From Rhodobacter capsulatus SB 1003 (GTDB taxonomy: Bacteria; Pseudomonadota; Alphaproteobacteria; Rhodobacterales; Rhodobacteraceae), in assembly GCF_000021865.1 (NCBI RefSeq), contig NC_014034.1, positions 2,100,001 through 2,132,000 of the forward strand: DNA of 32,000 nucleotides, read 5' to 3'. Position 1 is the first letter of the stretch, and every line of letters begins with the position of its first letter. The translations under genes were made by a program, and so were the position numbers. Of the stretch, positions 7,119 to 24,171 are shown piece by piece. The notes under the pieces are model-generated. The model was given only the letters and a program-made list of their open reading frames with translations, was not told the origin of the DNA and did no database searches.

Positions 7119-9230
7119 ATGGCCCGCCTGCGCTTTCCCGCGGCCGCCCCGACACTGACCGGCCTTGCGCTGGCGGCGCTGACCGGCCTTTCCGCGCCCG
7201 CCCGCGCCGAGGGGCTTTCAAGCTACGGCACGCCCGGGCTGATCGATCTGCCAGCCGCCACCGCCGCGCCCGATGGCACGCTGGCCTGGACCTCGTCCTT
7301 TCTGGGCGGGCACACCCGCAACACGCTGCAGTTCCAGATCACGCCGCGGCTGTCGGGGGTGTTTCGCTATTCGATCCTGCGCGGCTATTTCGACACGCCC
7401 GAGGCCGATCTTTACGACCGCAGCTTCGATCTGCATTATGTGTTCCGCACCGAAAGCCCGCGGTTTCCGGCGCTTGCGGTGGGCTTGCGCGATTTCGGCG
7501 GCACCGGGGTTTTCGGCGCGGAATATCTGGTCGCGACGAAGCGGTTCCTTGACAACCGGCTGGCGCTGAGCGGCGGCATAGGCTGGGGGCGGCTGGGATC
7601 GTATCACGGGTTTCGCAACCCGCTGGCGGTGCTGGGCGAGCGCTTCGAGACCCGGCCGGGCCTGACCAGCCTGTCGGAAACCGGCCGCGTCTCGTTCAAC
7701 CGCTTCTTCCGCGGCGAGGCGGCGCTGTTTGGCGGGCTGAGTTATCAGCTGAACGACCGGCTGCAGCTGGCGGTCGAATATTCCTCGGACGCCTATCGGC
7801 GCGAGGTTGCCAGCATGGGCTTTGCGCATCGCAGCCCGGTGAACATCGGCCTGAGCTGGCAGGCAAGCGAGGCGCTGACGCTGACGGCCGCGGTGATCGG
7901 CGGGGCGCAGCTGGGGCTTGGCTTCAGCTACCAGCTCGACCCGCGCGCGCCGCGGGCGCCGGGCGGGCGCGAGAGGGCGGTGGCGCCGCTTTTGCCGCGC
8001 GCCGAGATCGCCGCTTTGGGCTGGCCCGCCGGGAACACGGAGGCCAGCCGCAGCCGTCTGGCATCGGCGCTGGCGCGCGACGGGCTGCGGCTGGAAAGCT
8101 ATGCCGAGGACGGCGCCCGCGCCCGGATCGTGCTGGCCAATCCGGGCTTTCGCGCCGCGCCGCAGGCGCTGGGGCGGGCGGCGCGCGCGATGGCCAACAG
8201 CCTGCCCGCCGGGATCGAACGTTTCGAGATCACCCTGACCGCGCAGGGCATGCCGACGACGCAGGCCGCGTTCCGCCGCGCGGACCTGCATCAGCTGGAA
8301 CATGCCTGGGACGGCAGCTGGCAAAGCTTCGCCCGGGCGCAGATCACCGACGCGCCCGCGCGGCTCGCCCCCGATCCGGGCGTCTATCCGGCGCTTGACT
8401 GGAGCCTGCTGCCCTATGTCCGCACCGCGCTTTTCGACCCCGACAGCCCGCTGCGCGCCGATGTCGGGCTGGCGGCCAGTGCCAGCTACCGGCTGGCGCC
8501 GGGGCTTTCGGTCGAAACGCTGATCCGGCAGAAAGCCTTTGGCACGCTGGATCAATCGAGCCGGATTTCGAATTCGATTCAACCGCATGTGCGTTCCGAC
8601 GCGCCGCTTTACGACAAGCTTTCGGGGCCGCAGCTGGTGCAGCTGAGCGCCGATTACCTGGTCCGGCCCGGGGGCGATCTGTATGGCCGGGTCTCGGCGG
8701 GCTATTTCGAACAGATGTTCGCGGGCGTCTCGGGCGAGATCCTGTGGTATCCGCAGGGCAGCCGCCTCGCCCTTGGCGCCGAGCTGAACCATCTTGTGCA
8801 GCGCGATCCCGCCGCGCGGCTGGGGCTTGGCGACTATCGCGTCACCTCCGGCCATGCCTCGGCCTATTACGATTTTGGCGACAGCTACCGCGGCCAGCTC
8901 GATCTGGGGCGCTATCTGGCGGGCGACTGGGGCGGCACGCTGACGCTGGCCCGCGAATTCGACAACGGGTTCCGCGTCGCGGCTTTCTTCACCCTGACCG
9001 GCATTTCCTTTGACGATTTCGGCGAGGGCTCGTTCGACAAGGGCATCAGCCTGACGATCCCGCTGGACTGGCTGACCGGAGAGCCGTCGCGGCGCGGCTT
9101 TGCGCAGACGATCCGGCCGATCCAGCGCGACGGCGGCGCCCGGGTGGCGATCGCGCATCGGCTTTACGAGGAGGTCCGGGGCACGAATGCCCAGACGCTC
9201 TCCGATCAATGGGGCAAGTTCTGGCGATGA
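7119..9230 (+). CDS. yjbH: YjbH/GfcD-family outer-membrane exopolysaccharide protein (module A)
   Basis: The ATG at 7119 lies 4 nt after the GT4 stop. Signal peptide is MARLRFPAAAPTLTGLALAALTGLSAPARA. At 703 aa it matches the size of E. coli YjbH/GfcD. It has the N-terminal GTPGLIDLPAA motif and the C-terminal FGEGSFDKGISLTIPLDW...IRPIQRDGG... It is a clear paralogue of 18100-20220. Confidence 0.75.
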   Translation: MARLRFPAAAPTLTGLALAALTGLSAPARAEGLSSYGTPGLIDLPAATAAPDGTLAWTSSFLGGHTRNTLQFQITPRLSGVFRYSILRGYFDTPEADLYDRSFDLHYVFRTESPRFPALAVGLRDFGGTGVFGAEYLVATKRFLDNRLALSGGIGWGRLGSYHGFRNPLAVLGERFETRPGLTSLSETGRVSFNRFFRGEAALFGGLSYQLNDRLQLAVEYSSDAYRREVASMGFAHRSPVNIGLSWQASEALTLTAAVIGGAQLGLGFSYQLDPRAPRAPGGRERAVAPLLPRAEIAALGWPAGNTEASRSRLASALARDGLRLESYAEDGARARIVLANPGFRAAPQALGRAARAMANSLPAGIERFEITLTAQGMPTTQAAFRRADLHQLEHAWDGSWQSFARAQITDAPARLAPDPGVYPALDWSLLPYVRTALFDPDSPLRADVGLAASASYRLAPGLSVETLIRQKAFGTLDQSSRISNSIQPHVRSDAPLYDKLSGPQLVQLSADYLVRPGGDLYGRVSAGYFEQMFAGVSGEILWYPQGSRLALGAELNHLVQRDPAARLGLGDYRVTSGHASAYYDFGDSYRGQLDLGRYLAGDWGGTLTLAREFDNGFRVAAFFTLTGISFDDFGEGSFDKGISLTIPLDWLTGEPSRRGFAQTIRPIQRDGGARVAIAHRLYEEVRGTNAQTLSDQWGKFWR

Positions 9231-9889
9231 ACAGGCGGCAGGTTCTGACGGCTTTTGCGGTTCTGGCGGCGCTTGCGGGCTGTTCCTCGGACCCGGGAAC
9301 ACGGGCGCTGCTGGCGGGGGCGCTGCCCTTGCGCGCGCGCGCGGCCGAGCCGAACCCGGACTTTGCCGCGGCCGAACGCGCGGGCGCCCCGGCCCTTGCG
9401 GCGGCGGTCGAATCCCGGCCGGAGGCGATCGCGGTGCTGCGGCGGCAGACCGTATCGGAGCCCGACGGCGTCGAGACGATGATCGCGGCCGATGGCGCGC
9501 AACTGATGTTTCAGGGCGGGCTTCTGGTCGGCAGCCGGGGCTTTGGCGCCGATGTGATGGCCGCGGAGGTGACGCAAAGCGCGGCGCTGGTGCGGGGGCT
9601 TTCGGCCGGCACATCGACGCGGCTGATGACGCTGATCGACGGCAATGACCATGCGGTGACGCGGGCCTTTCGCTGCCGGATCACCCCGGGCGAGATCGAG
9701 ACCGTCCGCATCGGCCCCCGCGCCGTCCCCACCCGCACGATGACCGAGGCCTGCCGCGGTGCGCTGGCGCGGTTTTACAATTTCTACTGGGTGGTGCCCG
9801 AGACCGGCGAGATCGTGCAATCCAGCCAGTGGACCGGGCCGCTGACCGGCAAGATCTCGCTGCGCCGGATCGATCCGGGGCGGCGCTGA
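9227..9889 (+). CDS. yjbF: YjbF/GfcB-family lipoprotein (module A)
   Basis: The ATG at 9227 overlaps the yjbH stop (ATGA); an alternative ATG lies at 9209. Lipoprotein signal is MNRRQVLTAFAVLAALAGC. It is ~220 aa and shares GLLVGSRGFGADVMAAE and QSSQWTGP motifs with the paralogue at 17501-18103. Its position next to yjbH supports the family call. Confidence 0.65.
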   Translation: MNRRQVLTAFAVLAALAGCSSDPGTRALLAGALPLRARAAEPNPDFAAAERAGAPALAAAVESRPEAIAVLRRQTVSEPDGVETMIAADGAQLMFQGGLLVGSRGFGADVMAAEVTQSAALVRGLSAGTSTRLMTLIDGNDHAVTRAFRCRITPGEIETVRIGPRAVPTRTMTEACRGALARFYNFYWVVPETGEIVQSSQWTGPLTGKISLRRIDPGRR

Positions 9890-9919
9890 GCCCCGCCCCG
9901 ATCCTGGCCCCGATCGCCG

Positions 9920-12001
9920 CTAGTCGCGGTAATATTCCGCATGCGCGCCGTAGCGGGCGCCATAGCTGCCGCCCTGCCCGTAACGCTGCATCCGGTCGGT
10001 GTCGATCCGGCTCAGGATCAGGCCGCTGACCTTCTGGCGCACGCTGGCGAAAAGCTGCAGCGCCTCGAAGACCTCGCGGCGCGGGGTGCCGTCCCAAAGC
10101 ACCGAAAACAGCGCCGCATCGGCCGATTGCGCGATGATCCGGGCATCGGGCACCACGAGGACCGGCGGCGTGTCGATCAGGATATAGTCGAAGCGGCGCC
10201 GCATCTGCGCGATGAAGCCCTTCCAGGCGTCGGACATGAACAGATCGGCGGCATTGACCCGGCTGCGCTCGCCCATGATCAGCGACAGGCCCAGTTCGGG
10301 ATGGGCGATCACCACCTCGTCCACCTCGGCCGCGCCGGACAGCAGCGACACCAGCCCCTTGCGCCCGGCATGCTGTGGGAAATATTCCGCCAGCATGTTG
10401 CGGCGGATGTCGCCCTCGATCAGCAGCACCGACTTGCCGATGCCGACGAAATTCATCGCCAGCGCCAGCGCATTCGTCGTCTTGCCCTCGCCCGGCACCG
10501 AAGAGGTCAGCATGATCACCTGCGGCGGCGCATCGACATTGGACAGCAGCACCGAGGTGCGCAGGTTGCGCACCGCCTCCATCGCCGCCGAGGAGGGTTT
10601 CGCCGCCAGATAGCCCATCACCTCGCCCCGCGTCGCGCCGGGAATGACCGGGATCTGCCCCATCACGACGAGGCCCGTGTCCTCCTCCAGCTGGCGCGCG
10701 GTGCGAAAACCGTCGCGCAGCAGGTCGCGCAGCAGCACGACCGCCACCCCCGCGATCAGGCCCAGCACGGCGCAGAACGCCAGGATCAGCCCCTTGCGCG
10801 GCGCCGTCGGCACCTTGGGCACCACCGCCGCCGAGAGGATCCGGCTGTCGGCCTGCTGGATGCCCTGCTGCGCCGAGGTTTCCTTGAGCCGCCCCAGGAA
10901 ATATTCGTAAAGCGTGCGGTTCGCCTCGGCCTCGCGCGTCAGCTGCTGCAGCGCGATCATGTCGTCGCCCTGCCGCGAGATCTGCCGCGAAAGCGTCGTT
11001 TCGGTGCGCCGCATCGCCGCCAGCTGATCCTCGGCCCGGGCCCGTTCCAGCCGCGCCCGCGCCAGCAACAGGGCAAATTGCGCCTCGAACTCGGCGCCAG
11101 TCCCGGCTGCCAGCCGCGCCAGCCCGGCCTCGCCCGCGGCCGCGACCTTTTCATCGGGCGTCCGCGCCGCTTCCAGCGCCGCGGCCCGCGCCGAAGCCCG
11201 CGCCGCCGCCTGCGTCGTGTCGGCGATCCGCTCGCGCAGATCCTTGAGCTGCACCTGCAGCGCCGCCAGCGACTCCTCGGAAATCAGCGTCGTGCCGACA
11301 TTGAAGGATTTCACCTTTTCCTCGGTCGCCTCGAGCTGGCGCTTCAGCGCGGCCACCCGGTTGCCCAGCCAGACCGTCGCCTGTTCGGTCGCCTCGAACT
11401 TCACCTCGATCTGGTTGACGATATAGCGCTTCGTCCAGGCATCGGCGATCCGCGCCGCCTTTTGCGGGTCTTCGGACTGCACCGCAACCTCGAAGACATA
11501 GCTGTCGGGCAGGTTGCGCACCGCCAGATGGGCCAGAACGGCATCGACCACCCCCGCCCGGATCGCCGCCGGATCGGGCGCCGCGGCCGCGCCGAAAAGC
11601 CCGCGCAACCGCGCCCGCAGGGACGGCGCCCCCAGCGTGGCGTTGAATTCCGGGTCCGCGGCCAGATCGAGCTCCGCCACCACCTTTTCCGCCACCCCGC
11701 GCGAGCGCAGCACCTCCACCTCGGTGTTCAGCTCGTCCGAGCTGCCGGTCAGCCCGCCCATCATCCCCTCGAGGTCGATCACCTGCGGCTTGCGGGTTTC
11801 CAGCACCACCGTCGCCCGCGCCGTATAGACCGGCGTCGCGAGGAATTGCGCATAAAGCAGCCCCAGCGCCACCGCCACGGCAAAGCCGGCCGCGATCGTC
11901 CGCCAGCCCGCCCGCAGGGTCCGCAGCCCCTGCGCAAGATCGATCATCTCGTCCTCGGGCGCGGGACGTTCGGCGTGAGTGTGAGGAGCGTTCATCTGCA
12001 T
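9920..12001 (-). CDS. wzc: Polysaccharide co-polymerase / tyrosine autokinase (Wzc/ExoP/GumC family), module A
   Basis: It has an N-terminal Wzz-like domain with a TM helix (WRTIAAGFAVAVALGLLYA), a long coiled-coil and a second TM. The kinase domain has Walker A SSVPGEGKTT, A' LLIEGDIRRN and B YILIDTPP, with a Tyr-rich tail YGQGGSYGARYGAHAEYYRD. Start is uncertain: ATG at 12001 or 11995; the track start at 12049 is a TTG. Confidence 0.85.
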   Translation of the reverse strand: MQMNAPHTHAERPAPEDEMIDLAQGLRTLRAGWRTIAAGFAVAVALGLLYAQFLATPVYTARATVVLETRKPQVIDLEGMMGGLTGSSDELNTEVEVLRSRGVAEKVVAELDLAADPEFNATLGAPSLRARLRGLFGAAAAPDPAAIRAGVVDAVLAHLAVRNLPDSYVFEVAVQSEDPQKAARIADAWTKRYIVNQIEVKFEATEQATVWLGNRVAALKRQLEATEEKVKSFNVGTTLISEESLAALQVQLKDLRERIADTTQAAARASARAAALEAARTPDEKVAAAGEAGLARLAAGTGAEFEAQFALLLARARLERARAEDQLAAMRRTETTLSRQISRQGDDMIALQQLTREAEANRTLYEYFLGRLKETSAQQGIQQADSRILSAAVVPKVPTAPRKGLILAFCAVLGLIAGVAVVLLRDLLRDGFRTARQLEEDTGLVVMGQIPVIPGATRGEVMGYLAAKPSSAAMEAVRNLRTSVLLSNVDAPPQVIMLTSSVPGEGKTTNALALAMNFVGIGKSVLLIEGDIRRNMLAEYFPQHAGRKGLVSLLSGAAEVDEVVIAHPELGLSLIMGERSRVNAADLFMSDAWKGFIAQMRRRFDYILIDTPPVLVVPDARIIAQSADAALFSVLWDGTPRREVFEALQLFASVRQKVSGLILSRIDTDRMQRYGQGGSYGARYGAHAEYYRD

Positions 12002-12219
12002 TCCATCGAAACCGTCGCGGCGGGGCGCAAGGCATTGCCGCACCCGCAATCCGCCCCGTCCTAGCAGAGTTTGCCCGACAGGCTAAGCGCTTTCCACCGC
12101 ACCGCCGCAACCGCCGCATTGTCCGGGCTTCGTGCAACAATCCTGCCCTGCCCGGGCGCAGTGCCGCCATTTGGAACCGGTCGCGTCTCATTTGCGCCAT
12201 ACTCGTAATCAATGGGTTA

Positions 12220-12246
12220 ACGCGTGATCTGCGAAAGATCCCGCGT
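12220..12246. promoter_or_regulatory. 27-bp near-perfect palindrome (candidate operator or 5'-UTR hairpin) upstream of the priming transferase
   Basis: ACGCGTGATCT GCGAA AGATCCCGCGT, with 10 of 11 arm positions complementary. It lies 52 nt upstream of the ATG at 12298, inside the 296-bp divergent wzc-A / sugar-transferase intergenic region. Confidence 0.5.
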
Positions 12247-12297
12247 GCGATCGTTCTGGGTGCCGAGACCTTGCGAGCTGACCTCTGGGAGTGTGAG

Positions 12298-12996
12298 ATG
12301 GCCTTTTATGACATCGGATCTTCGGCCGAAGACCTTGTCGCGCTGGAGCGGGCGCTTGCGCCCCGGCCCGGCGTCCTGCGCGCGGTCTATGCCCGTTTCG
12401 GCAAGCGGCTGGCCGATCTGGTGCTGGCGGTGCTGATGCTGCCGGTGCTGCTGCCGGTGATCGCGCTGATCTGGCTCTGGGTGCGGCTTGACGGCCATCC
12501 GGCGCTGTTCTGCCAGCCCCGCGTCGGACGCGACGGCCGGATCTTCGCCTGCTACAAGTTCCGCACCATGGTCCCCGGCGCCGAACGCGTGCTGGCCGAG
12601 ATGTGCGCCCGCGATCCCGCCATCGCCGCCGAATGGGCGACCTATCAGAAGCTGCGCCACGATCCCCGCATCACCCGCGCAGGCGCCTGGCTGCGCAAGC
12701 TCAGCCTTGATGAATTGCCGCAGATCTTCAACGTGTTGAAGGGCGACATGAGCCTGGTCGGCCCGCGTCCCTTCCTGCCCGCACAGGAACCGCTTTACCG
12801 TCAGGCGGGCGGGCGGGCCTATTTCCGGATGCGTCCGGGCGTGACCGGGCTGTGGCAGGTCGTCAGCCGTCACGACACCACGCTGGCCGCCCGGGTGCAG
12901 TTCGACGAAAGCTACGGCCGCGATCTGTCGCTGCGCCGCGATCTTGGCCTGATCCTGCGCACCGCCGGGGTGGTGGCGCGCCGCACCGGCGCCTGA
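12298..12996 (+). CDS. Undecaprenyl-phosphate sugar-phosphate transferase (bacterial sugar transferase, WbaP C-terminal / ExoY type); priming enzyme
   Basis: ATG at 12298 with GGGAG 6 nt upstream; the track start at 12271 is a TTG. There is one TM helix ([25 protein letters not shown]), followed by [23 protein letters not shown]...[21 protein letters not shown], the hallmark of this family. Confidence 0.9.
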
Positions 12997-13004
12997 GACG
13001 GCAC

Positions 13005-13029
13005 GGCCCTCTCCCGGCGGGGCAGGGCC
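13005..13029 (+). terminator. GC hairpin downstream of the sugar transferase (possible attenuator or terminator, no clear U-tract)
   Basis: GGCCCT (13005-13010) pairs with AGGGCC (13024-13029), with inner CCC/GGG pairs. It is immediately followed by the small palindrome AGATT-GCG-AATCT (13030-13042). It lies 9 nt after the TGA at 12994-12996. Confidence 0.3.
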
Positions 13030-13105
13030 AGATTGCGAATCTCGCGCCCGCAGCCTAGAGCGGAAGCAGCGCGCCCGCAGTTGCCCGGCCGCCCCAGCCC
13101 CGGAG

Positions 13106-14485
13106 ATGACCTTGCGCCTGCTGACCGTGCTGCTGACCGCGACGATGCTCTCTCAGACCCTTGGCGGCTGCGGCGTCGCCTATCACGGCGCCAAGGTCCG
13201 CCCCGGCATCAGCGCCGAGGGCAAGGTCCGCGTCCTGCCGGTCAGCGCGGAATCGGTGCTGGTGGCCAATGCCGCCCCCTATCAGCCGCGCCAGCTGCCC
13301 AGCTATTTCCGCCAGACCGCGGGCCTTGGCGGCACCTTGGCCGAACCCGTCGCCGCCCCCGAAGGCACGCTGCCGCGCCTCGCGCGGCCCGAGCCGCCGC
13401 AGATGCGCCTGCCGCCGCCGCTCGCCCCCGCGAGCTATCGGATCGGCGTCGGCGATGTCGTGCTGCTGGCGACCCCGCGCGACGGCACCACGGTCGGACA
13501 GCTGACCGGGATCCTCGCCGCCCAGACCGCGCGGCAGGGCTATACGGTGCAGGATGACGGCACGATCTCGGTGCCGACGGTGGGGCGGGTGCAGATCGCG
13601 GGCCAGACCGTCGACGACGCCGAGGCGACGCTGTTCCAAAGCTTCCTTGACCGGAAGATCGACCCGACCTTCTCGCTGGAGATCGCCGAATTCCGGTCAA
13701 AGACCGTGGCGATCGGCGGCGATGTCGCGGCGCCCGGGGTGGTGCCGGTGACGCTGGCGCCGCTGCATCTGGACGCGGCGCTGGCGGCGGTGGGCGGGGC
13801 GACCCCGGCCGATCCCGACACCGCGCTGGTGCGGCTGCACCGCGGCGGCAAGCTTTACCAGATGCCGCTGAAGGCGGTGCAGGAAGATCCCGCGGTGGGG
13901 CAGCTGCCGCTGGCGGCGGGCGACAGCCTGTTTGTCGACAGCGGCTATGCGCTGGACCGGGCGGCGGCCTATTTCGAGCAGCAGATCACGCTCGCCAATT
14001 TCCGTCAGGCCGAGCGCAAGTCGCGGCTCGAGGCGCTGCAGACCGAGGTGGCGCTGCGCCGGTCCGAGCTGTCCGAAGCGCGCGAAACCTTTGCCACCCG
14101 GCTCGATCTGGGGGCAGAGGCGCGCGATTACGTTTATGTCACCGGCGAGATCGGCAAGCAAAGCCGCTTCCCGCTGCCCTTCGACCGCAAGGCGACGCTG
14201 GCGGATGCGCTTTACGAGGCGGGCGGCGGGCTGAGCACGGCCAGCTCGAACCCGAAAGAGATCTATGTGCTGCGCGGCTCTGCCGATCCGCTGGAATATG
14301 ACGCGATCACCGCCTGGCATCTGGACGCGGGCAACATGGCGGCGATGCTGCTGGCGACGCGCTTCGATCTGCATGCCAATGACGTGATCTTCGTCGCCGC
14401 CCAGCCGGTGCAGCACTGGAGCAACGTGATCAAGGCGCTGACGCCCTCGTTGCTGGTCTCCTCGGTCAACGCCGTCTCGGAATAA
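13106..14485 (+). CDS. wza: Polysaccharide export outer-membrane lipoprotein (Wza/ExoF family), module A
   Basis: 459 aa. Lipoprotein signal is MTLRLLTVLLTATMLSQTLGGC, followed by a Pro/Ala-rich linker. The Poly_export core is YRIGVGDVVLL...YTVQDDGTISVPTVGRVQIAGQTVDDAEATL, then SLBB-like segments. The C-terminal helix ...WSNVIKALTPSLLVSSV resembles the Wza-B C-terminus WNRLISSILPTVTVV. Confidence 0.85.
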   Translation: MTLRLLTVLLTATMLSQTLGGCGVAYHGAKVRPGISAEGKVRVLPVSAESVLVANAAPYQPRQLPSYFRQTAGLGGTLAEPVAAPEGTLPRLARPEPPQMRLPPPLAPASYRIGVGDVVLLATPRDGTTVGQLTGILAAQTARQGYTVQDDGTISVPTVGRVQIAGQTVDDAEATLFQSFLDRKIDPTFSLEIAEFRSKTVAIGGDVAAPGVVPVTLAPLHLDAALAAVGGATPADPDTALVRLHRGGKLYQMPLKAVQEDPAVGQLPLAAGDSLFVDSGYALDRAAAYFEQQITLANFRQAERKSRLEALQTEVALRRSELSEARETFATRLDLGAEARDYVYVTGEIGKQSRFPLPFDRKATLADALYEAGGGLSTASSNPKEIYVLRGSADPLEYDAITAWHLDAGNMAAMLLATRFDLHANDVIFVAAQPVQHWSNVIKALTPSLLVSSVNAVSE

Positions 14486-14515
14486 GACGGCCTGCGTTCG
14501 AGCGGGCGGGCGGGC

Positions 14516-14761
14516 TCAGTTGGTGGAGGGGGTCGAGCTGCCGCCGCCGCCGCCCGCCGAAAGCGCCGCAAGCCCTGCCACGCCGCCCAGAAGCGGCAAC
14601 AGGAACACCAGGTTGGTGGCGCGGCCGACGGGCAGATCGCCCTCGGGCAGGACCACCGCGGGTTTGGTCTCGTCCTTTTCGGTCTTCGGCGCCGATTGCG
14701 CCAGCGCGGGCGCCGTCAGCGCCAGACTGCCAAGAAGCGCCAGAACCACCGCAGATTTCAT
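14516..14761 (-). CDS. yjbE: Small secreted Gly-rich protein, YjbE/GfcA-like (module A)
   Basis: ATG at 14761 with GGGAGGGA upstream; the track start at 14782 is a TTG. 81 aa. Signal peptide is MKSAVVLALLGSLALTAPALA, the middle is charged, and the C-terminus is FLLPLLGGVAGLAALSAGGGGGSSTPSTN. This is the same architecture as 17103-17420 and, from memory, as the E. coli YjbE tail (...ATGGGDGSNTGTTTT...). Confidence 0.6.
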   Translation of the reverse strand: MKSAVVLALLGSLALTAPALAQSAPKTEKDETKPAVVLPEGDLPVGRATNLVFLLPLLGGVAGLAALSAGGGGGSSTPSTN

Positions 14762-16509: not shown

Positions 16510-17007
16510 ATGTGGGAACAGGCAACCCGCCTGCGGGTCCTGCCGCGCTTTGCCGCGCGCAGGATCGCAGGCGCTCTCTTGGTCTTTGGTTTGATCGGCA
16601 TGCCGCCGGGGGCACCTCGGGCGCAGGAGGTCTATCTGGCCGCCAATCCGATCATCGTCACCGCCGACCGGGGCGGCTATCTTGGCAAACGCAGCGATCA
16701 GATCGACCGGATGCGCTCGATCGGGCAGCGGGTGGAGTTGCGCGGCACCTGCCTGTCGGCCTGCACCATGTATCTGAGCCTGCCCAATGTCTGTGTCGCG
16801 CCCGATGCCGTCCTGGGCTTTCACGGTCCGAGCAAGAACGGCATACCGTTGCCGCAGCGCGACTTTGACTACTGGTCGCAGGTGATGGCCCGCAACTACA
16901 GCGAGCCCCTGCGGTCGTGGTTCATGACCAAGGCCCGGTTCATCACCAACGGCTATTACAAGGTCAGCGGCGCAGAGCTGATCCGGATGGGCTATCCGCA
17001 ATGCTGA
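16510..17007 (+). CDS. Hypothetical secreted/periplasmic protein (165 aa)
   Basis: ATG at 16510 with GAAGGGG upstream. Signal-like N-terminus is MWEQATRLRVLPRFAARRIAGALLVFGLIGMPPGAPRAQE. The mature part contains LRGTCLSACTMYLSLPNVCVAPDAVLGFHGP, which is loosely reminiscent of periplasmic ClpP/crotonase-like (COG3904-type) proteins. The upstream in-frame extension (track ORF from 15829) uses rare A/T-ending codons and is rejected. Confidence 0.55.
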   Translation: MWEQATRLRVLPRFAARRIAGALLVFGLIGMPPGAPRAQEVYLAANPIIVTADRGGYLGKRSDQIDRMRSIGQRVELRGTCLSACTMYLSLPNVCVAPDAVLGFHGPSKNGIPLPQRDFDYWSQVMARNYSEPLRSWFMTKARFITNGYYKVSGAELIRMGYPQC

Positions 17008-17102: not shown

Positions 17103-17420
17103 TTATTGCTGCGTGTCGGTGGTGGCACCGCCACCGCCGCCCGCCACGGCCGCCGCCACCACACCGGCCGCGGCCACGCCGCCAAGCGCACCAAGACCGC
17201 CGAGCAGCGGGAAGAAACCGGTGGCTTCAGGTTCGACACCGGCCTCTTTCGCGTCGGCTGCCGCGCCGCCGGGCGCGCCGGGCTTGGCGGCCGGGGTTTT
17301 GACGGCCGGGGGCTGCGCGGCCGGAGCCTTGGCCGAGACCCGCGCGGCACCCGGAACCTGCTGTGCCTGAACCGCGAAAGGCAGGGCGCAAAGAAGGCAT
17401 GCAAGACAGATTTTCTTCAT
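17103..17420 (-). CDS. yjbE: Small secreted Gly/Ala/Pro-rich protein, YjbE/GfcA-like (module B)
   Basis: ATG at 17420 with GGAG 7 nt upstream; the track ORF begins further upstream at 17585. 105 aa. Signal peptide is MKKICLACLLCALPFAVQA, the middle is Ala/Pro/Lys-rich, and the C-terminus is FFPLLGGLGALGGVAAAGVVAAAVAGGGGGATTDTQQ. It is the last gene of the wza-wzb-wzc-yjbH-yjbF operon. Confidence 0.65.
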   Translation of the reverse strand: MKKICLACLLCALPFAVQAQQVPGAARVSAKAPAAQPPAVKTPAAKPGAPGGAAADAKEAGVEPEATGFFPLLGGLGALGGVAAAGVVAAAVAGGGGGATTDTQQ

Positions 17421-17500: not shown

Positions 17501-18103
17501 TCACCCGCTTCTGCCGGTCATTGCGGCGGTTTCCTCCAGGTTGAACGGCCCGACATCGACATATCCCAGCGCGGGAGAGATCCATTGCCGGGATTTCGCC
17601 ACCCGACCGGCCGAATCAAGCTCGAAGACATTGGTGAAGGCGTGATCGCGCGCGCGGCAGCTTTCCTCGAAGCGGCGCAGCCCGTTTTCGACGCCCAGGG
17701 CCCGCATCGAGCAGCCCGCCGTCAGCCAGGTGGAATGGTTGTCCCCGGTCAGATAGCGCAGCTTGCGCCGGTAGACCCCCTCTGCCTGCCCGGCCAGCGC
17801 GGCGCGGGTGGGGGCGGCATCGGCCCCCATCAGATCCTCGCCCAGACCGCGGCTGGCAACCAGAATGCCGTCGTCAAAGGAGAGCGTGATCCGGTCCAGC
17901 GTCTGCCAGGTGCTGACCGGGCCATTCTGCCCCACCGGGCGCAGCACCGCCCGGGCCTTGCGCGCGGGCAGATCGGCGCGGATCAGCGGCGCGGTCAGAA
18001 ACGGCTGCGCGGCGGCGGCCAGCTCGGCCTGTTGCCGCGGCGAGGGCCCGCAACCGGCCAGAGCCGCGGCGCAGGCAAGCAGAACAAGCGCTTTTCCCGT
18101 CAT
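17501..18103 (-). CDS. yjbF: YjbF/GfcB-family lipoprotein (module B)
   Basis: 200 aa. Lipoprotein signal is MTGKALVLLACAAALAGC. The start overlaps the yjbH-B stop (ATGA at 18100-18103). It shares GILVASRGLGEDLMGAD and KSRQWISP motifs with 9227-9889. Confidence 0.65.
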   Translation of the reverse strand: MTGKALVLLACAAALAGCGPSPRQQAELAAAAQPFLTAPLIRADLPARKARAVLRPVGQNGPVSTWQTLDRITLSFDDGILVASRGLGEDLMGADAAPTRAALAGQAEGVYRRKLRYLTGDNHSTWLTAGCSMRALGVENGLRRFEESCRARDHAFTNVFELDSAGRVAKSRQWISPALGYVDVGPFNLEETAAMTGRSG

Positions 18104-20220
18104 TTCCAGAACCGCCCCCAGGATGCATCCAGCGCCGAGGCCTGTTGGCCGCGCACGGTTTCGTAAAGCCGCCCCGGCACGGCAAGCCGCGCGCCGCCGT
18201 CGCGCTGCACCGGCCGGATCGTGGTGTTGATCGCCCGCCGCTCCGGCTTGCCGGTGATCCAGTCGATCGGGATCGTCAGGCTGATCCCCTTGTCAAAGGA
18301 GCCCTCGCCGAAATCCTCGGAGGAGACATTGGTGAGCGTGGCAAAGGCGCCGATCTTCCAGCCGTTGTCGAATTCGCGCGCCAGCGTGACCGTCGCCCCG
18401 GTGTCGCCCGCCAGATAGCGGCCGACATCGATCTGCCCCATGAAGCCGCCGTCGAACTGGTAATAGGCCGAGAGATGGCCGGTGGCGACATCGTAATCGC
18501 GAAAGCCGAACATGTCGTCGAAGGCGCGCTGCTTCGTCCAGTTCACCTCGGCCCCCAGCGCGAGGCGGCTGTTTTGCGGCTTCCACAGCAGTTCCGAGGA
18601 CACCCCGCCATACATCTGTTCCAGCAGGCCGACGGTCACCCGGCCATAAAGATCCCGCCCGGGCCGGACATACCAGGCGCCGGTCAGTTCGGTCAGGCTG
18701 GTGTCGCTGCCCTTGGCGTAAAGATAGCCGTCCGAGCGCACATGCGGCAGCACCGAGGTCGAGGGGCGGATGGTCCGGTCCATGTTGCCGACCAGCTTCT
18801 GATGCAGCCGTGCCGAGAAGACCAGGCCCGCCGTCGGCTCGAACCGGGCCGAGGCCGCCACCCCGCCATCGATGCGCAGGGGCGAATCCGGGTCGAAGAA
18901 ACTGGGCGTCACATAGGGGTCAAGCCCCGCGGTGAAGGCGGGGAAATAGCCGCCGTTCGGCGCCAGCGATGTCGGCGCATCGGCGATCCGGGTGCGGGCG
19001 CGCATCAGATCGGAGGCGACGGGGTGGAATTCCAGCGCCTCCAGATCGGCGCGGCGCAGCAGCACCGAGGAGACCGGCATGCCCTTTTCGGTCAGCCGGA
19101 TCTCGAAACGCTCGATATGGGCGGGGGCAAGGCCGGTCAGCGCGCGGGCGGCGCGGCCGGTCGCCTGCGCGGCGATCGGATAGCGGTCGTTTCCGATCTG
19201 GATGCGCAGGGTGTCGCCGTCGCGGGCAAGCCCGTGCAGGGTGAGGCCTTCCTTCTCCAGCGCGCTCCGGGTGGCGGCGATCAGCGCGCCCTCGTCCAGA
19301 TCGGGGCTGGGCCCGGCCGAGCCCGCGCGCGGCACGACAGGCGGCGGCGCGGCATCCAGCCCCGAGCCCATGCGCGGCTGTTTCGGGTTCAGCGCATAAG
19401 TGAATTGCAGCCCCAGTTCCGAACCGTACAGATAGCGTGCCGAGAAGGTGGTGCGGTCGCTGTAGTGATAATCGGCACCAAAGTTCAGGGGCGATTTGCG
19501 CTTGAAGGCGGCGCCGTCCTCGCGGGCGTAATCATCCGAGGAATATTCGGCCACCAGCCGCCAGCGGTCGTTCGGGCGCCATTCCACCCCGCCGAAGAAG
19601 GCGGCATCGCCGCGAAACCAGGTCTTGGCCTGAAAGCCGCCCCCCGGGCCGGATTCGGCGAAGGGACGGTATTTGAACGCCGGTTTCAGCACGCCCAGTG
19701 GGTTGGTGAAGCCGCCATGCGAGCCCAGCCGCCCCCAGCCCAGCCCGAGCGTCGCCCGCAGCTGCGGCGAAAAGGTCTTGCTCGCCACCACATATTCGCC
19801 GCCATAGATGCCGGTGCCGACAAGGTCGTTGACCCCGATGGCAAAGGCCGGACGGTAGGTGCCCTCCTCGAGGAAGCGATACTGCAGCGAAAAGCTGCGG
19901 TCGTAGCGATAGGGCTCGACCGGGCCGCCGGGGTTGCGGCGGATGTCATGCAGCAGCGAATAGCGGAACGAGGCCGAGAGCCGCTCGGAGATCTGAAAGG
20001 TCAGCGCATGCCGGGTCTGGTTCTGGACATGGCTGACGGCATAGCCCAGCTCGCCGTCTTCGCGGCCAAAGGCGCCGGGCATGTCGATCAGCCCGGGCAC
20101 GCCGAAGCTGTTGTAGCCCCAGGCCGTGCCCTCGGGCCCCGCCGCGGCCGGACCGGCCGAAAGCCCCGCGATCAGGGCCGCAGAAGAGATCAGGAAAAAC
20201 GGTTTCGACGGTCTCGACAT
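18100..20220 (-). CDS. yjbH: YjbH/GfcD-family outer-membrane exopolysaccharide protein (module B)
   Basis: 706 aa. Signal peptide is MSRPSKPFFLISSAALIAGLSAGPAAA. It has the N-terminal GVPGLIDMPGA motif and the C-terminal FGEGSFDKGISLTIPIDWITGKPERR...IRPVQRDGGARL...WGRFWK. It is collinear with 7119-9230. Confidence 0.75.
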   Translation of the reverse strand: MSRPSKPFFLISSAALIAGLSAGPAAAGPEGTAWGYNSFGVPGLIDMPGAFGREDGELGYAVSHVQNQTRHALTFQISERLSASFRYSLLHDIRRNPGGPVEPYRYDRSFSLQYRFLEEGTYRPAFAIGVNDLVGTGIYGGEYVVASKTFSPQLRATLGLGWGRLGSHGGFTNPLGVLKPAFKYRPFAESGPGGGFQAKTWFRGDAAFFGGVEWRPNDRWRLVAEYSSDDYAREDGAAFKRKSPLNFGADYHYSDRTTFSARYLYGSELGLQFTYALNPKQPRMGSGLDAAPPPVVPRAGSAGPSPDLDEGALIAATRSALEKEGLTLHGLARDGDTLRIQIGNDRYPIAAQATGRAARALTGLAPAHIERFEIRLTEKGMPVSSVLLRRADLEALEFHPVASDLMRARTRIADAPTSLAPNGGYFPAFTAGLDPYVTPSFFDPDSPLRIDGGVAASARFEPTAGLVFSARLHQKLVGNMDRTIRPSTSVLPHVRSDGYLYAKGSDTSLTELTGAWYVRPGRDLYGRVTVGLLEQMYGGVSSELLWKPQNSRLALGAEVNWTKQRAFDDMFGFRDYDVATGHLSAYYQFDGGFMGQIDVGRYLAGDTGATVTLAREFDNGWKIGAFATLTNVSSEDFGEGSFDKGISLTIPIDWITGKPERRAINTTIRPVQRDGGARLAVPGRLYETVRGQQASALDASWGRFWK

Positions 20221-20361
20221 TCTGCCCTGCCTTGCCGGAATATATTCTTCAACTTTGGTCCAATCTGCTGCGCCCGCGCCGGGGCGTCAACCAAAAGGAG
20301 AGTGCCCGCGCCGCGAGATCGCCGCCCGTGGCGAGCCTGCCGCAGCCGCGCCCCTCCCGGT

Positions 20362-22554
20362 TCAGCCGCGGTCGGATTTGTAGTCATAGCGATAGTTGTA
20401 ATAATGATAGGCGCCGCCGTAGCGGGCCCCTTCCTCGACCTTGTAGCCGTTCAGGATCGCCCCGGTGATCGTGCTGCCCGCGGTCTCGAAGGCGCGTTTG
20501 ACCGCCTCGACCTCGCCCGCCATCGTTTCCAGATGCCGCGCGACCACGATCCGCGCGCCGACAAACCGCCCGATCACCACCGGATCGGTGACGGCCAGCG
20601 CGGGCGGGCTGTCGATCAGAACCAGATCGAAGCGCTCCGACAAAAGCTGCAGCAGCGCCTCGAACTCGGCCCGCATCAGAAGCTCGGACGGGTTCGGCGG
20701 AAACCGCCCCGAGGTGATCACCGAAAGCCCCGGAACCGGGCCTTCGACCAGCACCTCTTCCAGCGTGCATTCCCGCGCAAGATAGTCCGACAGCCCCGGC
20801 GCGGTCTTCGGCCTGCCGAAATAGCGCCGCAGATAGCCCTTGCGCAGATCGGCATCGACCAGACACACCCGCTGCCCCGCCTGCGCCGCCACCGTGGCGA
20901 AATTGACCGAGGTGAAGCTCTTGCCCGCCCCCGGCGCGGCCGAGGTGATCAGGATCGTGTTCGTGCGCGCATCGAGCATGCCGAAATGCAGCGAGGTGCG
21001 CAGGCTGCGCAGCGCCTCGATCACCAGATCGTCCGGATTGGTCAGCGCCATGATCGGCAAGGCCCCCTTGCGGCGGCGATGGTTGGCCGCCTCGGGCGAG
21101 AAATTCACCGTGGCAAAGACCGGCAGGCCCAGCTTTTCCAGCTCCTGCGCGCCGCGGATGCCGCGGTTCAGCAGCCGCCGCCCGAAAACCGTCGCCGCCC
21201 CGAGCACGAGGCCGAGCAGCAGCGACACCGTCAGGATCCGCCCCGCCCGCGGCGCCACCTTGATGTCGCTGGCATAGGCGGTGTCGATGATCCGCACCGA
21301 GCCCACGGTCGAGGCCTGCACCACCCGCAATTCCTGCTGCCGGTTCAGAAGCTGCACATAGACCTGCTGCGACACTTCCAGATTGCGGCTGAGGTTGAAG
21401 ATTTCCTTTTGCGTTTCCGGCAGGTTGGCGGTCGCCTTGCGCAGATCGGCCAGCTGCGTCTCCAGCGTGGCACGGTTTTGCAAAAGCGCCTGATAGACCG
21501 GGTGATTGACCGTGAAGCGGTCCTTCAGCTCCTCTTCCTTCAGCGAAAGCGCGTTCAGCTCGGTCTCGAGCTGCGTCGCGCGGTCCAAAAGCGCCTTGGT
21601 CTCGTAATCGACATCCACCGATTGCTGCGCCTGCCGATAGGTGTTCAGCGCATCCTGCGCCGCCGCCACCGCCGCCTCGGCCTTGGGCAGCTGCGCATCG
21701 ATGAACCCCAGGGAATTGCGCGCCTCGGCGGCAGAGCGGCTGACGTTCTGGCTGACATAGGCCTGGGCGATCGCATCCAGAATCCGCTCGGCGCGCTCGG
21801 GCACCGCATCGCGGTAGCTGACCTTGAGGATCGACGAGCCCTTCGGCGCCTCGGAGACGCCGAAGTTTTCCTGCAGCTCCTTCACCATGTCGGGCAGCGC
21901 CTGTTTCGAGACCAGGAATTCCCGCCCCACCGGCCCTTCGAGCCGGTCGACAAGGATCGCCCCCCCCGCCCCGGGCAGGTTCAGCCGCCGCCGCACCGGG
22001 CCTTCCAGCACCGCCCCGTCGGGCAGGGTCAGCCGGAATTCCCCCGGCGCGGTGATCCGCAGCACCAGCTCTTCGCCCAAAAGCGCCTCGGGCAGGTCAA
22101 GAACGCTGACCGCGATCGCCTCGTTGCCATGCCGGCGCGACGGAAACAGCAGATCCGGCACTCCAAGCCGCACCGGCAGCATGCCCAGCAGGGGCCAGGG
22201 CCGCGGCTCGGCCAGGATCTGCAGGTTCAGCCCCTGCACCACCTCGCCCATCACCATCCGCGATTTCATGATCGCCATCTCGGCCTCGCCGGGGGATTTC
22301 GTCCCGACATCGCCGCTGAGCAGTTCCTGCATCCCCTCGGGCAGCGCCAATGCCCCGGATTTCGTTTCAAGCTGCAAGAGCCCCTCGGCCTGATAGACCG
22401 GCGTCGCGCGCAGCACCGAAAACACCCCCAGCGCCAAGGAGGCCGCGGTGATCCCGGCAATCCAGAGCTTGCCCGCCCAAAGGTGACCGGCAAGCTCCAT
22501 CAGATCGATCTCGTCGCTCTGATCCGGGGTCGGACGGGGGGCGGTGCTGGTCAT
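20362..22554 (-). CDS. wzc: Polysaccharide co-polymerase / tyrosine autokinase (Wzc/Etk family), module B
   Basis: 730 aa. It has a Wzz-type N-terminus (LWIAGITAASLALGVFSVL), a coiled-coil periplasmic region and a second TM. The kinase domain has Walker A SAAPGAGKSFT, A' LVDADLRKG and B LVLIDSPP, with a Tyr cluster tail YGGAYHYYNYRYDYKSDRG. Confidence 0.9.
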   Translation of the reverse strand: MTSTAPRPTPDQSDEIDLMELAGHLWAGKLWIAGITAASLALGVFSVLRATPVYQAEGLLQLETKSGALALPEGMQELLSGDVGTKSPGEAEMAIMKSRMVMGEVVQGLNLQILAEPRPWPLLGMLPVRLGVPDLLFPSRRHGNEAIAVSVLDLPEALLGEELVLRITAPGEFRLTLPDGAVLEGPVRRRLNLPGAGGAILVDRLEGPVGREFLVSKQALPDMVKELQENFGVSEAPKGSSILKVSYRDAVPERAERILDAIAQAYVSQNVSRSAAEARNSLGFIDAQLPKAEAAVAAAQDALNTYRQAQQSVDVDYETKALLDRATQLETELNALSLKEEELKDRFTVNHPVYQALLQNRATLETQLADLRKATANLPETQKEIFNLSRNLEVSQQVYVQLLNRQQELRVVQASTVGSVRIIDTAYASDIKVAPRAGRILTVSLLLGLVLGAATVFGRRLLNRGIRGAQELEKLGLPVFATVNFSPEAANHRRRKGALPIMALTNPDDLVIEALRSLRTSLHFGMLDARTNTILITSAAPGAGKSFTSVNFATVAAQAGQRVCLVDADLRKGYLRRYFGRPKTAPGLSDYLARECTLEEVLVEGPVPGLSVITSGRFPPNPSELLMRAEFEALLQLLSERFDLVLIDSPPALAVTDPVVIGRFVGARIVVARHLETMAGEVEAVKRAFETAGSTITGAILNGYKVEEGARYGGAYHYYNYRYDYKSDRG

Positions 22555-22660
22555 CTCAAGGTCCTGTCAATCAGTCAAACATGCAGTTCGGGACAAATGA
22601 TCCCGCAATGGGACGCGCCCGTCCCGGGCAGGCCGGGGCGAGCGCTTTCGTGTTTACGCG

Positions 22661-23089
22661 TCAAAGGCGCGCAATCCAAGGCTCTGCCGCGGCGAGGATC
22701 CGGTCACGCGTCGCGCGGTGCACGTCCAGATCGCGGCGGAACGGGTCGGCGATGCCCTGCCCGCCCGTCCAGTGGTCAAACAGCATCACCCGCCCCGAAA
22801 GCTCCGGAAAGCGGCGAAAGATCTCGGCGCGGTGGCCCGGTTCCATCACCAGGATCAGATCCTGCGTCGCGCCGATCTCGGCGCTCAGCTGCCGCGCCAC
22901 ATGGCCCGACAGATCCAGCCCGACCTCGGCGGCGACAGTCGCCGCATCGGCATCGGCGCCATGCCCCACCACCGCCGCCAGCCCCGCCGAGGACAGCCGC
23001 AGCCCCGGCCGCGCCCGCGCCAGAACCGCCGCCCCGAGCGGAGAGCGACAGATATTGCCGACGCAGACCACCAGAACCGAACGGATCAT
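22661..23089 (-). CDS. wzb: Low-molecular-weight protein-tyrosine phosphatase (Wzb/Etp type)
   Basis: 142 aa. The N-terminal P-loop is VLVVCVGNICRSPLG (the C-x5-R-S signature). A downstream Asp loop is GIADPFRRD. It lies between wza and wzc as in classical wza-wzb-wzc operons. Confidence 0.9.
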   Translation of the reverse strand: MIRSVLVVCVGNICRSPLGAAVLARARPGLRLSSAGLAAVVGHGADADAATVAAEVGLDLSGHVARQLSAEIGATQDLILVMEPGHRAEIFRRFPELSGRVMLFDHWTGGQGIADPFRRDLDVHRATRDRILAAAEPWIARL

Positions 23090-23094
23090 GGCGG

Positions 23095-24171
23095 TCAGTC
23101 GGTGCTGATGTCGCCGGTGGTCTTCACCACCGTCACCGTCGGCAGGATGCTGGAAATCAGGCGGTTCCAGCGATAGACCGGGGCCGAGGTCACATAGATC
23201 ACGTCTTGCGGCAGGATCACGAAGCGGGTGCCGATCAGATAGGCGGTCGGGTTCGAGGCGTCGAGCTGATAGACGGTGATCCCCATCGGCTCGTCGCGGA
23301 AGACGAAGATGCCGCGGGCATCGGCCTTGTCCTCGGCCAGACCGCCGACGCGGGTGATCGCCTGGGTCAGGGTGATGTTTTCCAGCGTCAGATCGATCGT
23401 CGAAGGGCTTGACATTTGGGCCAACAAATAGGCCTCCTGCACCGTCTGCCGCCCGACGCTGACGACATCGCCGTTTTGCAGCACCGGGTTGTTGGCGCCG
23501 ATGCCCTGTTCCAGAAAGGCCTTCATGTCGACCTGATGGCTGCGCCCGCCGCGGCGGATGGTGACGGCGCGCGGATCGGCCGTTTCGGTCAGCCCGCCCG
23601 CCGCGTCGATCGCATCAAGCAGCGTCAGGGGCACATCGGTCAGCGGCTGGCGGCTGGGGCTGCCCACCTCGCCCGTCACCGAGACCGACTGGCTCTTGTA
23701 GCTCGCCACCCGGACCTCGACCTGCGGATCGGGGAAGAAGGCGGCAAGCTTTTTGCGCAGATCGTCGCGGATCGCCTCGGGCGTCTTGCCGCGCGCGGGC
23801 ACCTGCCCGACGTAGGGGTAAAAGAACGTGCCATCGGCCTGCACGCGCTGGCCCGCCTGTTCGACCGTGCGCCCGGTGCCCGCCGCCTGTGTCAGCTCGG
23901 GATGGTCCCAGACCGTGACATCAAGCACGTCGCCCACGCCGACCCGGTAATCCCAGGCCGACGAGGACAGCGAGGCCCGGCTGCCCGAAAGATCCCGCGG
24001 CGTGTTGAAGGCATCGATATTGTCGGCCGTCAGCTTGACCACGATGACATTGGTGGACATTTCCTCGACCTCGGCCCGGACGGCCTCGGTGCGGACCGGA
24101 AAATCGGTCTTGGTCACGTCGCAGGCCCCCAGAAGCAGACCCGACGCCGCCGCAAATACAGCGAATCGCAT
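23095..24171 (-). CDS. wza: Polysaccharide export outer-membrane lipoprotein (Wza family), module B
   Basis: 358 aa. ATG at 24171 with GAGGAA upstream. Lipobox is MRFAVFAAASGLLLGAC. The Poly_export core is YRVGVGDVLDVTVWDHPEL...VQADGTFFYPYVGQVPARGKTPEAIRDDL, followed by SLBB-like repeats and a C-terminal helix YRWNRLISSILPTVTVV. Confidence 0.9.
   Translation of the reverse strand: MRFAVFAAASGLLLGACDVTKTDFPVRTEAVRAEVEEMSTNVIVVKLTADNIDAFNTPRDLSGSRASLSSSAWDYRVGVGDVLDVTVWDHPELTQAAGTGRTVEQAGQRVQADGTFFYPYVGQVPARGKTPEAIRDDLRKKLAAFFPDPQVEVRVASYKSQSVSVTGEVGSPSRQPLTDVPLTLLDAIDAAGGLTETADPRAVTIRRGGRSHQVDMKAFLEQGIGANNPVLQNGDVVSVGRQTVQEAYLLAQMSSPSTIDLTLENITLTQAITRVGGLAEDKADARGIFVFRDEPMGITVYQLDASNPTAYLIGTRFVILPQDVIYVTSAPVYRWNRLISSILPTVTVVKTTGDISTD

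Follow-up and report, generated by a model that had tools for sequence, protein, structure and literature searches.

The 32,000-nucleotide stretch of Rhodobacter capsulatus SB 1003 DNA analysed here (NC_014034.1, positions 2,100,001 to 2,132,000; 'the window') corresponds to genes rcc01940–rcc01966 and carries two distinct Wzx/Wzy-type polysaccharide export modules, most likely for two different polymers (a reading given a probability of about 0.7). In the Wzx/Wzy pathway Wzx flips lipid-linked repeat units and Wzy polymerises them, the Wzc autokinase, cycling with Wzb, controls the process, and the Wza octamer is the exit. Module A (7119–14761; rcc01946–51) combines a YjbH–YjbF pair with a Wzc that resembles ExoP, an initiating transferase of the WbaP/ExoY-like kind and a Wza of the long form. 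Module B is a self-contained cassette (rcc01960–55, 24171 back to 17103) with the order wza-wzb-wzc-yjbH-yjbF-yjbE, together with a ClpP-fold gene and the gene of a small membrane protein. An earlier reading of the same DNA (the original prediction) had taken the two sets for diverged paralogous copies of one group-4-capsule-like module.

Because the DNA is ∼ 68% G+C, genes were chosen by their third-position GC (GC3) frame bias and then by Pfam matches, and the rcc numbering was taken from the published SB1003 gene table (PMC4158056 supplement). In that table rcc01942 is a pyruvyl transferase, rcc01945–47 are a family 4 glycosyltransferase (GT4), a DUF940 (YjbH) and a DUF2886 (YjbF) protein, rcc01948 is an ExoP-like polysaccharide co-polymerase (PCP), rcc01950 a Poly_export protein, rcc01958–60 are wzc, wzb and wza, and rcc01965 is gyrA (PMC4158056). 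Exact protein matches to the window were found in GCA_000505785.1 and other R. capsulatus assemblies, and YjbH-A is 94% identical to its counterpart in the species' type strain.

The largest proteins of the two modules are YjbH-A (rcc01946; 7119–9230, + strand; 703 aa) and YjbH-B (rcc01957; 18100–20220, − strand; 706 aa). Both match PF06082 over its full length (profile positions 2/3–657 of 658), with 701 and 759 bits, respectively, against a cut-off of 24. As had been proposed from their N- and C-terminal motifs, the two align end to end, with 49% identity over 696 columns (BLASTP, E = 0), and the alignment contains those motifs. Nucleotide identity between the two genes is 59% at the codon level, far from near-identity, and blastn returns only patchy segments of 70–80%; the copies are therefore not an assembly duplicate. 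An assembly duplication is also ruled out by the presence of the same layout in several independent assemblies, and the original view that the copies are diverged and no artefact stands. Along its whole length YjbH-A is 28% identical to E. coli YjbH and likewise to GfcD, and YjbH-B is 31% identical to YjbH and 31%, full length, to GfcD. Orthologues of YjbH-A in Rhodobacter, Sinirhodobacter and Paenirhodobacter are 64–69% identical to it.

In an AlphaFold2 model of YjbH-B (predicted local distance difference test score, pLDDT, 83.6), a predicted N-terminal barrel (residues 58–277) is followed by an α/β domain (310–414) and a C-terminal barrel (428–668), and the best PDB fold match of the model is FapF. 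This two-barrel model agrees with published descriptions of GfcD and YjbH (PMC8346858, PMC9603273, PMC11494523) and is in line with a proposed lateral gate for lipid-anchored chains (PMC11494523). YjbH-A, the signal peptide of which ends ARA-EG, is predicted to be a two-barrel outer-membrane protein as well, to judge from its 49% end-to-end identity with YjbH-B. A small open reading frame (ORF) lying between wzc-B and yjbH-B (20249–20383, −) has no family match.

Each yjbH gene is followed by a yjbF gene, the stop and start codons overlapping as ATGA (9227–9230 in module A, 18100–18103 in module B). YjbF-A (rcc01947; 9227–9889, +) and YjbF-B (rcc01956; 17501–18103, −) are lipoproteins of 220 and 200 aa, each with a LAGC lipobox, and score 82.3 and 69.1 bits on PF11102 (cut-off 25.9 bits). 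The motifs GxLVxSRGxGxDxM and SxQW are common to both, and the pair is 28–31% identical. The overlaps, lipoboxes and common motifs had all been read correctly at the outset. BLASTP aligns YjbF-A with E. coli YjbF at 31% identity over 134 aa; unlike YjbF-A, YjbF-B gave no BLASTP alignment to E. coli YjbF, and a PDB sequence search with YjbF-B returned neither GfcB nor any other chain of the family, its one match being an insignificant one to an antibody fragment (E = 0.96).

The Wzc and Wza proteins of the two modules belong to different subfamilies. Wzc-A (rcc01948; 9920–12049, −) and Wzc-B (rcc01958; 20362–22554, −) are both PCP-2a tyrosine autokinases, with Wzz and GNVR domains between two transmembrane segments, an AAA_31 P-loop kinase domain with a Walker A motif (GEGKT in Wzc-A) and a C-terminal cluster of Tyr residues (five among the last 25 residues of Wzc-A, seven among those of Wzc-B). 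Wzc-A resembles the ExoP type: its best NCBIfam model is TIGR01005 (ExoP-type), on which it scores 283.8 bits and so lies below the membership cut-off of 411.7, and its R. sphaeroides orthologue is annotated exoP (PMC4158056). Its start codon is uncertain, proteins of 691–693 aa being called in other assemblies. Wzc-B is of the E. coli type, carries a WZC_N domain in addition, and matches PRK11519 (E. coli Wzc) over its full length with 575 bits, below the equivalog cut-off of 1068; it is 36% identical to Etk, as against 25% for Wzc-A. Pairwise BLASTP aligns only the N-terminal ∼ 200 residues of the two kinases, and global identity between the A and B copies is 31–34% for Wzc, Wza and YjbF. 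The sole low-molecular-weight phosphotyrosine phosphatase in the window is Wzb of module B (rcc01959; 22661–23089, −; PF01451, 94 bits; 43% identical to Etp), and module A is without one.

Wza-B (rcc01960; 23095–24171, −) is a 358-aa Class 1 outer-membrane polysaccharide export (OPX) lipoprotein with an LGAC lipobox and Poly_export, SLBB_2 and Wza_C (34.6 bits) domains. It matches PRK15078 over its full length with 329 bits and is 41% identical to GfcE. Wza-A (rcc01950; 13106–14485, +), also an OPX lipoprotein, has 459 aa, an LGGC lipobox, a Poly_export domain and two SLBB_2 domains; the Pfam Wza_C domain was undetected in it, even at E ≤ 10. On the E. coli Wzc and Wza models, Wzc-B and Wza-B reach two to three times the bit scores of Wzc-A and Wza-A. 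Wza-A is 100 residues longer than Wza-B, and a charged insert of ∼ 65 residues (DRAAAYFEQQITLANFRQAERKSRLEALQTEVALRRSELSEARETFATRLDLGAEARD; residues 278–342, window 13939–14131) lies between its SLBB domains and is found neither in Wza-B nor in E. coli GfcE. Judged from its sequence, this insert looks helical. Wza-A matches the Wza structure PDB 2J58 at 3e-30 and aligns to GfcE in two blocks that reach its own last residue, ∼ 10 residues short of the end of GfcE. The last ∼ 25 residues of Wza-A align with the start of the GfcE/Wza outer-membrane helix, and this shorter segment is conserved in ∼ 60 orthologues. A plasmid protein search bearing on orthology with ExoF listed proteins from the Roseobacter group, Ralstonia (EpsA) and enterobacteria; Wza-A is not called ExoF here because no Sinorhizobium record was among the matches listed.

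The distribution of the two module types was examined by scanning one genome per species, which gave 79 loci that were mapped by tblastn with all window proteins; 76 of these are from outside R. capsulatus. YjbF directly follows YjbH in 73 of the 76. Of the 66 loci with sufficient downstream sequence, 49 have a gene of the Wza-A type as the next one on that strand; 45 of the 76 have a gene of the Wzc-A type within 10 kb, and one has a gene of the Wza-B type. By these counts type A is the usual arrangement in Rhodobacterales, and it is common too on plasmids of the Roseobacter group, where the RefSeq labels are 'YjbH domain-containing protein' and 'YjbF family lipoprotein'. The chromosome of Celeribacter sp. 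SCSIO 80788 has two apparently identical type-A modules (YjbH–YjbF–Wzc–Wza) with a ClpP-fold gene (L017 and L018, at 1.2 and 2.75 Mb), the product of a genuine recent duplication or else of a problem in the assembly.

Cassettes with the colinear order wza-wzb-wzc-yjbH-yjbF-small ORF contain the closest relatives of YjbH-B, and a convergent gene for a protein of 161–165 aa is usually present. The hosts are R. maris (L089), GCA_947502265.1 (L090), where the cassette is beside a Rep3 replication gene and transposases, and Pseudogemmobacter bohemicus, where it is beside IS66 fragments. All five of the cassette proteins are 47–82% identical to those of the window, and no type-A module is adjacent to them in the 10 kb flanks examined. 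In a metagenome-assembled genome (L063) a divergently arranged Wza-B-type set adjoins YjbH. The module B cassette is thus inherited as a unit and looks mobile, and acquisition of such a cassette would account for the origin of module B. In L089 (9721–12121) and L090 (1–1537) the B cassettes are near genes for a NusG paralogue and a Glycos_transf_4 protein, a hint that the portable unit for capsule production may be larger and bring along an antiterminator and an initiating enzyme. Rfam and tRNA scans of the whole window returned no matches, so no RNA gene or tRNA insertion site separates the two modules.

Beside module A is a biosynthetic block of four genes (rcc01942–45; 2265–7114, mixed strands) with Pfam matches to PS_pyruv_trans, Glycos_transf_1/Glyco_transf_4 and Glycos_transf_2. 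It encodes a polysaccharide pyruvyl transferase (rcc01942; 2265–3461, +; longest ORF from 2058), a GT4 (3430–4671, −), a family 2 glycosyltransferase (GT2; 4918–5823, +) and a further GT4 (rcc01945; 5969–7114, +; longest ORF from 5741), with start codons taken from the gene calls on an identical contig (L086). Present within module A, and not in module B, is the gene for an initiating phosphoglycosyl transferase (rcc01949; 12271–12996, +), a small Bac_transf protein of the WbaP C-terminal-domain/ExoY type (PF02397, 194 bits) that aligns to the C-terminal ∼ 200 positions of TIGR03022 WbaP_sugtrans with 263 bits. The polysaccharide locus extends ∼ 10 kb past the left edge of the window (L086 12105–21365), where there are genes for Wzx, a 476-aa protein of unassigned family that is a Wzy candidate, an epimerase, a sulfotransferase-like protein, ManC, a phosphomannomutase and a WecA-like Glycos_transf_4 protein, the last being rcc01932 by position.

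Published work on the capsule, from which the capsule statements made here are drawn (PMC10218006 and PMC4158056), sets the modules further apart. Genes rcc01958–60 are listed as capsule export genes and rcc01932 as encoding the chain-initiating enzyme, and rcc01081–86 form the capsule biosynthesis cluster required for receipt of the R. capsulatus gene transfer agent (RcGTA) (PMC10218006). Expression of rcc01958–60 follows that of rcc01081–86 and is lowered in a gtaI quorum-sensing mutant, and rcc01955–57 and rcc01932 belong to a second co-expression module affected by quorum sensing (PMC4158056). Genes of module A and the Wzx gene are in four other co-expression modules, which take in rcc01939, 42, 45, 46, 47, 48 and 50 (PMC4158056 supplement). 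Whether the two machines export the same polymer had originally been left open; the co-expression data and the listing of capsule export genes largely answer this (PMC10218006; PMC4158056). Module B appears to export the quorum-sensing-regulated capsule, and the most likely product of module A, as judged from gene content and synteny, is a separate exopolysaccharide for which the GT4, GT2 and pyruvyl transferase genes next to it are responsible.

In a mechanism along these lines, module B would function after the pattern of the E. coli gfc operon, which serves group-4 capsule export. Wzc-B would alternate between a phosphorylated and a Wzb-dephosphorylated form, thereby coupling polymerisation by Wzy to the Wza-B channel, and YjbH-B, YjbF-B and the secreted Gly/Thr-rich YjbE-B could help, at the outer membrane, to assemble or anchor the polymer on the surface. 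The substrate would be the quorum-sensing-regulated capsule that is the RcGTA receptor, with its sugar-assembly genes elsewhere (rcc01081–86 and the WecA-like rcc01932). The polymer of module A would be separate and probably pyruvylated, as suggested by the adjacent glycosyltransferases and pyruvyl transferase, with Wzx and the candidate Wzy encoded upstream.

Several observations weigh against two modules with a polymer each. The whole ∼ 40-kb locus was seen to contain one Wzx, one candidate Wzy and one Wzb, so some sharing between the modules is possible. The co-expression modules derive from 48 arrays, and even module B is split into two of the groups. The G+C content of module B (0.67–0.68, compared with 0.68–0.71) gives it no foreign signature. 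The tree in which YjbH-A and YjbH-B fall within one Rhodobacterales clade, with E. coli YjbH and GfcD outside, is a simple neighbour-joining one without support values. Finally, the analogy with the Gfc system is incomplete, since E. coli GfcD binds a GfcB–GfcC heterodimer (PMC8592465) and GfcC was not found here.

The single Wzx, candidate Wzy and Wzb, and the position of both modules in one locus, could also be explained by a composite or redundant machine handling one polymer, either in mixed complexes or by parallel routes, with Wzx/Wzy and Wzb shared. The fairly similar YjbH proteins (49%) are consistent with this, as is the lack of glycosyltransferases in module B, which, as first described, has none within the window and abuts the housekeeping genes gluQ-RS/trmFO/gyrA. 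Each module type is, however, found alone in other genomes, and the two are in different co-expression groups here. Module A has an initiating transferase of its own, whereas the capsule depends on rcc01932. Moreover, the Wzc and Wza pairs are only 31–34% identical and are members of different subfamilies, which makes mixed oligomers unlikely. Taken together, a single composite machine is improbable.

A still smaller chance attaches to an ancient duplication of one whole module within the locus, followed by divergence. The component lists of the two sets are alike, both YjbH copies are in one Rhodobacterales clade, and the two Celeribacter modules show that whole type-A modules can be duplicated. 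Divergence is nevertheless uneven, YjbH being 49% identical and the rest 31–34%, and gene order, orientation and content all differ, with Wzb and a detectable Wza_C domain only in module B and the transferase gene only in module A. The B architecture is kept as a unit in other genera without a type-A neighbour in the flanks, and the B copies of Wzc and Wza are much closer to the E. coli models than the A copies are (two- to threefold in bit score; 36% as against 25% identity to Etk for Wzc). The term paralogous modules, as used in the original prediction, misleads: the two architectures are conserved separately, each occurring alone elsewhere in Rhodobacterales, and are not the outcome of a local duplication.

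Least probable is that one module is a decaying or silent remnant that leaves a single functional route, as might be supposed from the complete R. capsulatus assembly CP198942.1 (L003; 15736–22121), in which Wzc-A is in two ORFs and Wza-A, YjbF-A and YjbH-A are shortened, because trmFO is also uncalled there, making assembly frameshift errors likelier than gene decay, and because the module ORFs are all intact with strong GC3 bias in the window and three other assemblies and their orthologues are 87–96% identical across R. capsulatus lineages.

A small Gly-rich secreted protein, along with a Wzc and a Wza, is indeed present in each set, as first reported. YjbE-like A (rcc01951; 14516–14761, −) is an 81-aa protein with a signal peptide and the C-terminal segment ..LLPLLGGVAGLAALSAGGGGGSSTPSTN, called from ORF and GC3 evidence, and YjbE-like B (rcc01955; 17103–17420, −) is a 105-aa secreted protein with the C-terminal end ..FFPLLGGLGALGG..GGGGGATTDTQQ, called from ORF evidence. 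Neither has a Pfam match, even at E ≤ 10, BLASTP gives no alignment between them, and tblastn of E. coli YjbE and GfcA against the window found nothing significant (best E > 1). Profile searches thus confirmed the families first assigned to YjbH, YjbF, Wzc and Wza and left the YjbE-like pair without sequence support. The name reflects an architecture that comprises a signal peptide, an Ala/Gly-rich segment, a Gly run, a Ser/Thr-rich C-terminal tail and a gene near yjbF, and as low-complexity resemblance cannot prove homology the assignment is tentative. E. coli YjbE ends in GGGDGSNTGTTTTTTTSTQ. A GGGG run and Ser/Thr tail are common to both window proteins and to those of L089, L090, L091 and L031 among other loci. 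Small proteins similar to YjbE-like A, with GGGG–Ser/Thr-rich ends, are found in related loci; orthologues of YjbE-like B with a GGGG..DTQ tail are 3′ of yjbF in L089 and L090, and in L091 an ORF resembling YjbE-like B is at another place in the locus, on the opposite strand.

No ORF in the window has a Pfam match to GfcC/YjbG, and Wza-A is likewise without a GfcC-family match at E ≤ 10. With E. coli GfcC and YjbG as tblastn queries, the best window value was E = 0.18, which is not significant, and none of the 83 loci searched gave a match at E ≤ 0.01. With GfcC missing, YjbF would therefore act alone or another protein would fill the GfcC role. GfcC has Wza-like β-grasp domains. The Wza exporter is a candidate substitute because it has β-grasp domains in common with GfcC and because its gene is directly 3′ of yjbF in the type A arrangement. 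That a Wza-type exporter is the partner of YjbF in place of GfcC, letting the YjbH–YjbF modules of Rhodobacterales work without GfcC, is a tentative suggestion that we consider rather doubtful at present.

Compared with E. coli gfcABCDE-etp-etk, module B has co-oriented homologues of GfcD (31%), GfcB (by Pfam family), GfcE (41%), Etp (43%) and Etk (36%), and a small secreted low-complexity protein at the place of GfcA. As for the E. coli group 4 capsule, sugar-assembly genes are at another place, and the initiating enzyme implicated, rcc01932, is of the WecA family. It differs in that GfcC was not found, the GfcA/YjbE relation is undetectable by sequence, the gene order is reversed (wza-wzb-wzc-H-F-E versus A-B-C-D-E-etp-etk), the R. 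capsulatus YjbH has a signal-peptidase-I type signal, and the cassette is accompanied by the ClpP-fold and small membrane-protein genes. Set against the same component list, module A is without both Wzb and GfcC. The group-4-capsule label of the original prediction consequently fits module B in part, GfcC being absent, and module A less well, given that its Wzc is of the ExoP type, that it encodes a WbaP/ExoY-type initiating transferase of its own and that Wzb is missing.

Similarity to E. coli yjbEFGH extends to YjbH (28% for YjbH-A, 31% for YjbH-B) and YjbF (31% over 134 aa for YjbF-A) and to membership of the same Pfam families; unlike yjbEFGH, the R. capsulatus genes are in the order H-F-E and not E-F-G-H, YjbG was not found, and they are linked to Wza/Wzc genes. 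Module A resembles the succinoglycan-like ExoP/ExoY systems in that TIGR01005 is the best model for Wzc-A, the R. sphaeroides orthologue is annotated exoP, the transferase is short and of the WbaP-C-terminal/ExoY-like type, and pyruvyl transferase and GT4/GT2 genes are adjacent. It is unlike them in that Wzc-A scores 284 on TIGR01005, compared with a cut-off of 412. Succinoglycan clusters are not known to include YjbH or YjbF.

In the survey of OPX proteins by Saidi et al. (2022), 55 YjbH/GfcD homologues were near Class 1 OPX genes, 24 were near Class 2 and none was near Class 3 (PMC9603273). Module B, with its Class 1 Wza, fits these pairings directly, and proximity of YjbH/GfcD to OPX genes is a known recurrent pattern. 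In contrast, Wza-A-type proteins are the usual neighbours of YjbH–YjbF in Rhodobacterales, although a domain scan would label them Class 3 because they have no Pfam-detectable Wza_C.

Two further genes accompany module B. A secreted 165-aa protein (rcc01954; 16510–17007, +) has a predicted ClpP fold (AlphaFold2 model, pLDDT 87.6, with ClpP as best fold matches) and no Pfam, NCBIfam or PDB-sequence match. Its homologues, 40–66% identical, were found in 16 of the 76 loci and in the L089 and L090 cassettes, adjoining YjbH modules of both types; in the B cassettes the gene is convergent with the YjbE-like gene. Residues G79, C81, S83, C85, T86, G103, F104 and H105 are among those that are invariant, and because of this invariance S83 and H105 of the modelled protein may form a catalytic pair. 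A paralogue with 45% identity is encoded upstream of the window, beside rcc01932 (L086, ∼ position 20252). The second gene encodes a 57-aa small membrane protein (MWALLIFPVCAILWMVLNARLGLV...; 16047–16220, −; GC3 0.83) that is conserved in module-B cassettes, with 65–67% identity over residues 1–43 in R. maris and GCA_947502265.1, and is probably a real, unannotated cassette member.

The remaining features of the window include an NAD-dependent sugar-nucleotide epimerase/dehydratase (rcc01952; 14856–15974, −; PF01370 and PF16363). An RTX calcium-binding repeat protein (rcc01940; 191–757, +) is encoded between the Wzx gene and the pyruvyl transferase/glycosyltransferase block, and RTX genes are also near YjbH-A orthologues in L007, L009 and L074. 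Between trmFO and gyrA are genes for a DUF6614 protein (26506–26889, −) and a small β-barrel outer-membrane protein (26917–27633, −), and this arrangement of trmFO, DUF6614, small barrel and gyrA is kept in every R. capsulatus assembly seen.

Overall, the result amounts to an annotation that is correct but rather ordinary. The protein families, the two-barrel architecture and the frequent linkage to OPX genes are already known, and the genes of R. capsulatus have been annotated and, in part, studied. The literature search listed no paper in which YjbH or GfcD is mentioned alongside Rhodobacterales taxa, and the GfcC-less H-F-E form, the two distinct Wza/Wzc pairings and their adjacency in one locus were not found described in the literature searched. 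Annotations should not treat the two sets as duplicates: module B is a portable cassette for capsule export, module A the resident exopolysaccharide exporter. The result bears on the role of GfcABCD/YjbEFGH in polysaccharide export, for which current ideas include a lateral-gate exporter of lipid-anchored chains (PMC11494523) and an outer-membrane complex with GfcB and GfcC. The locus presents a Rhodobacterales YjbH–YjbF pair without GfcC beside two kinds of Wza/Wzc machinery. Should the Wza-type exporter prove to take the place of GfcC, there would be a physical link between the Wza channel and the double barrel of YjbH, R. capsulatus would have two differently designed Wza–YjbH couplings side by side with one shared Wzb, and the locus would offer a natural system for studying the function and partner specificity of the Gfc/Yjb accessory proteins.

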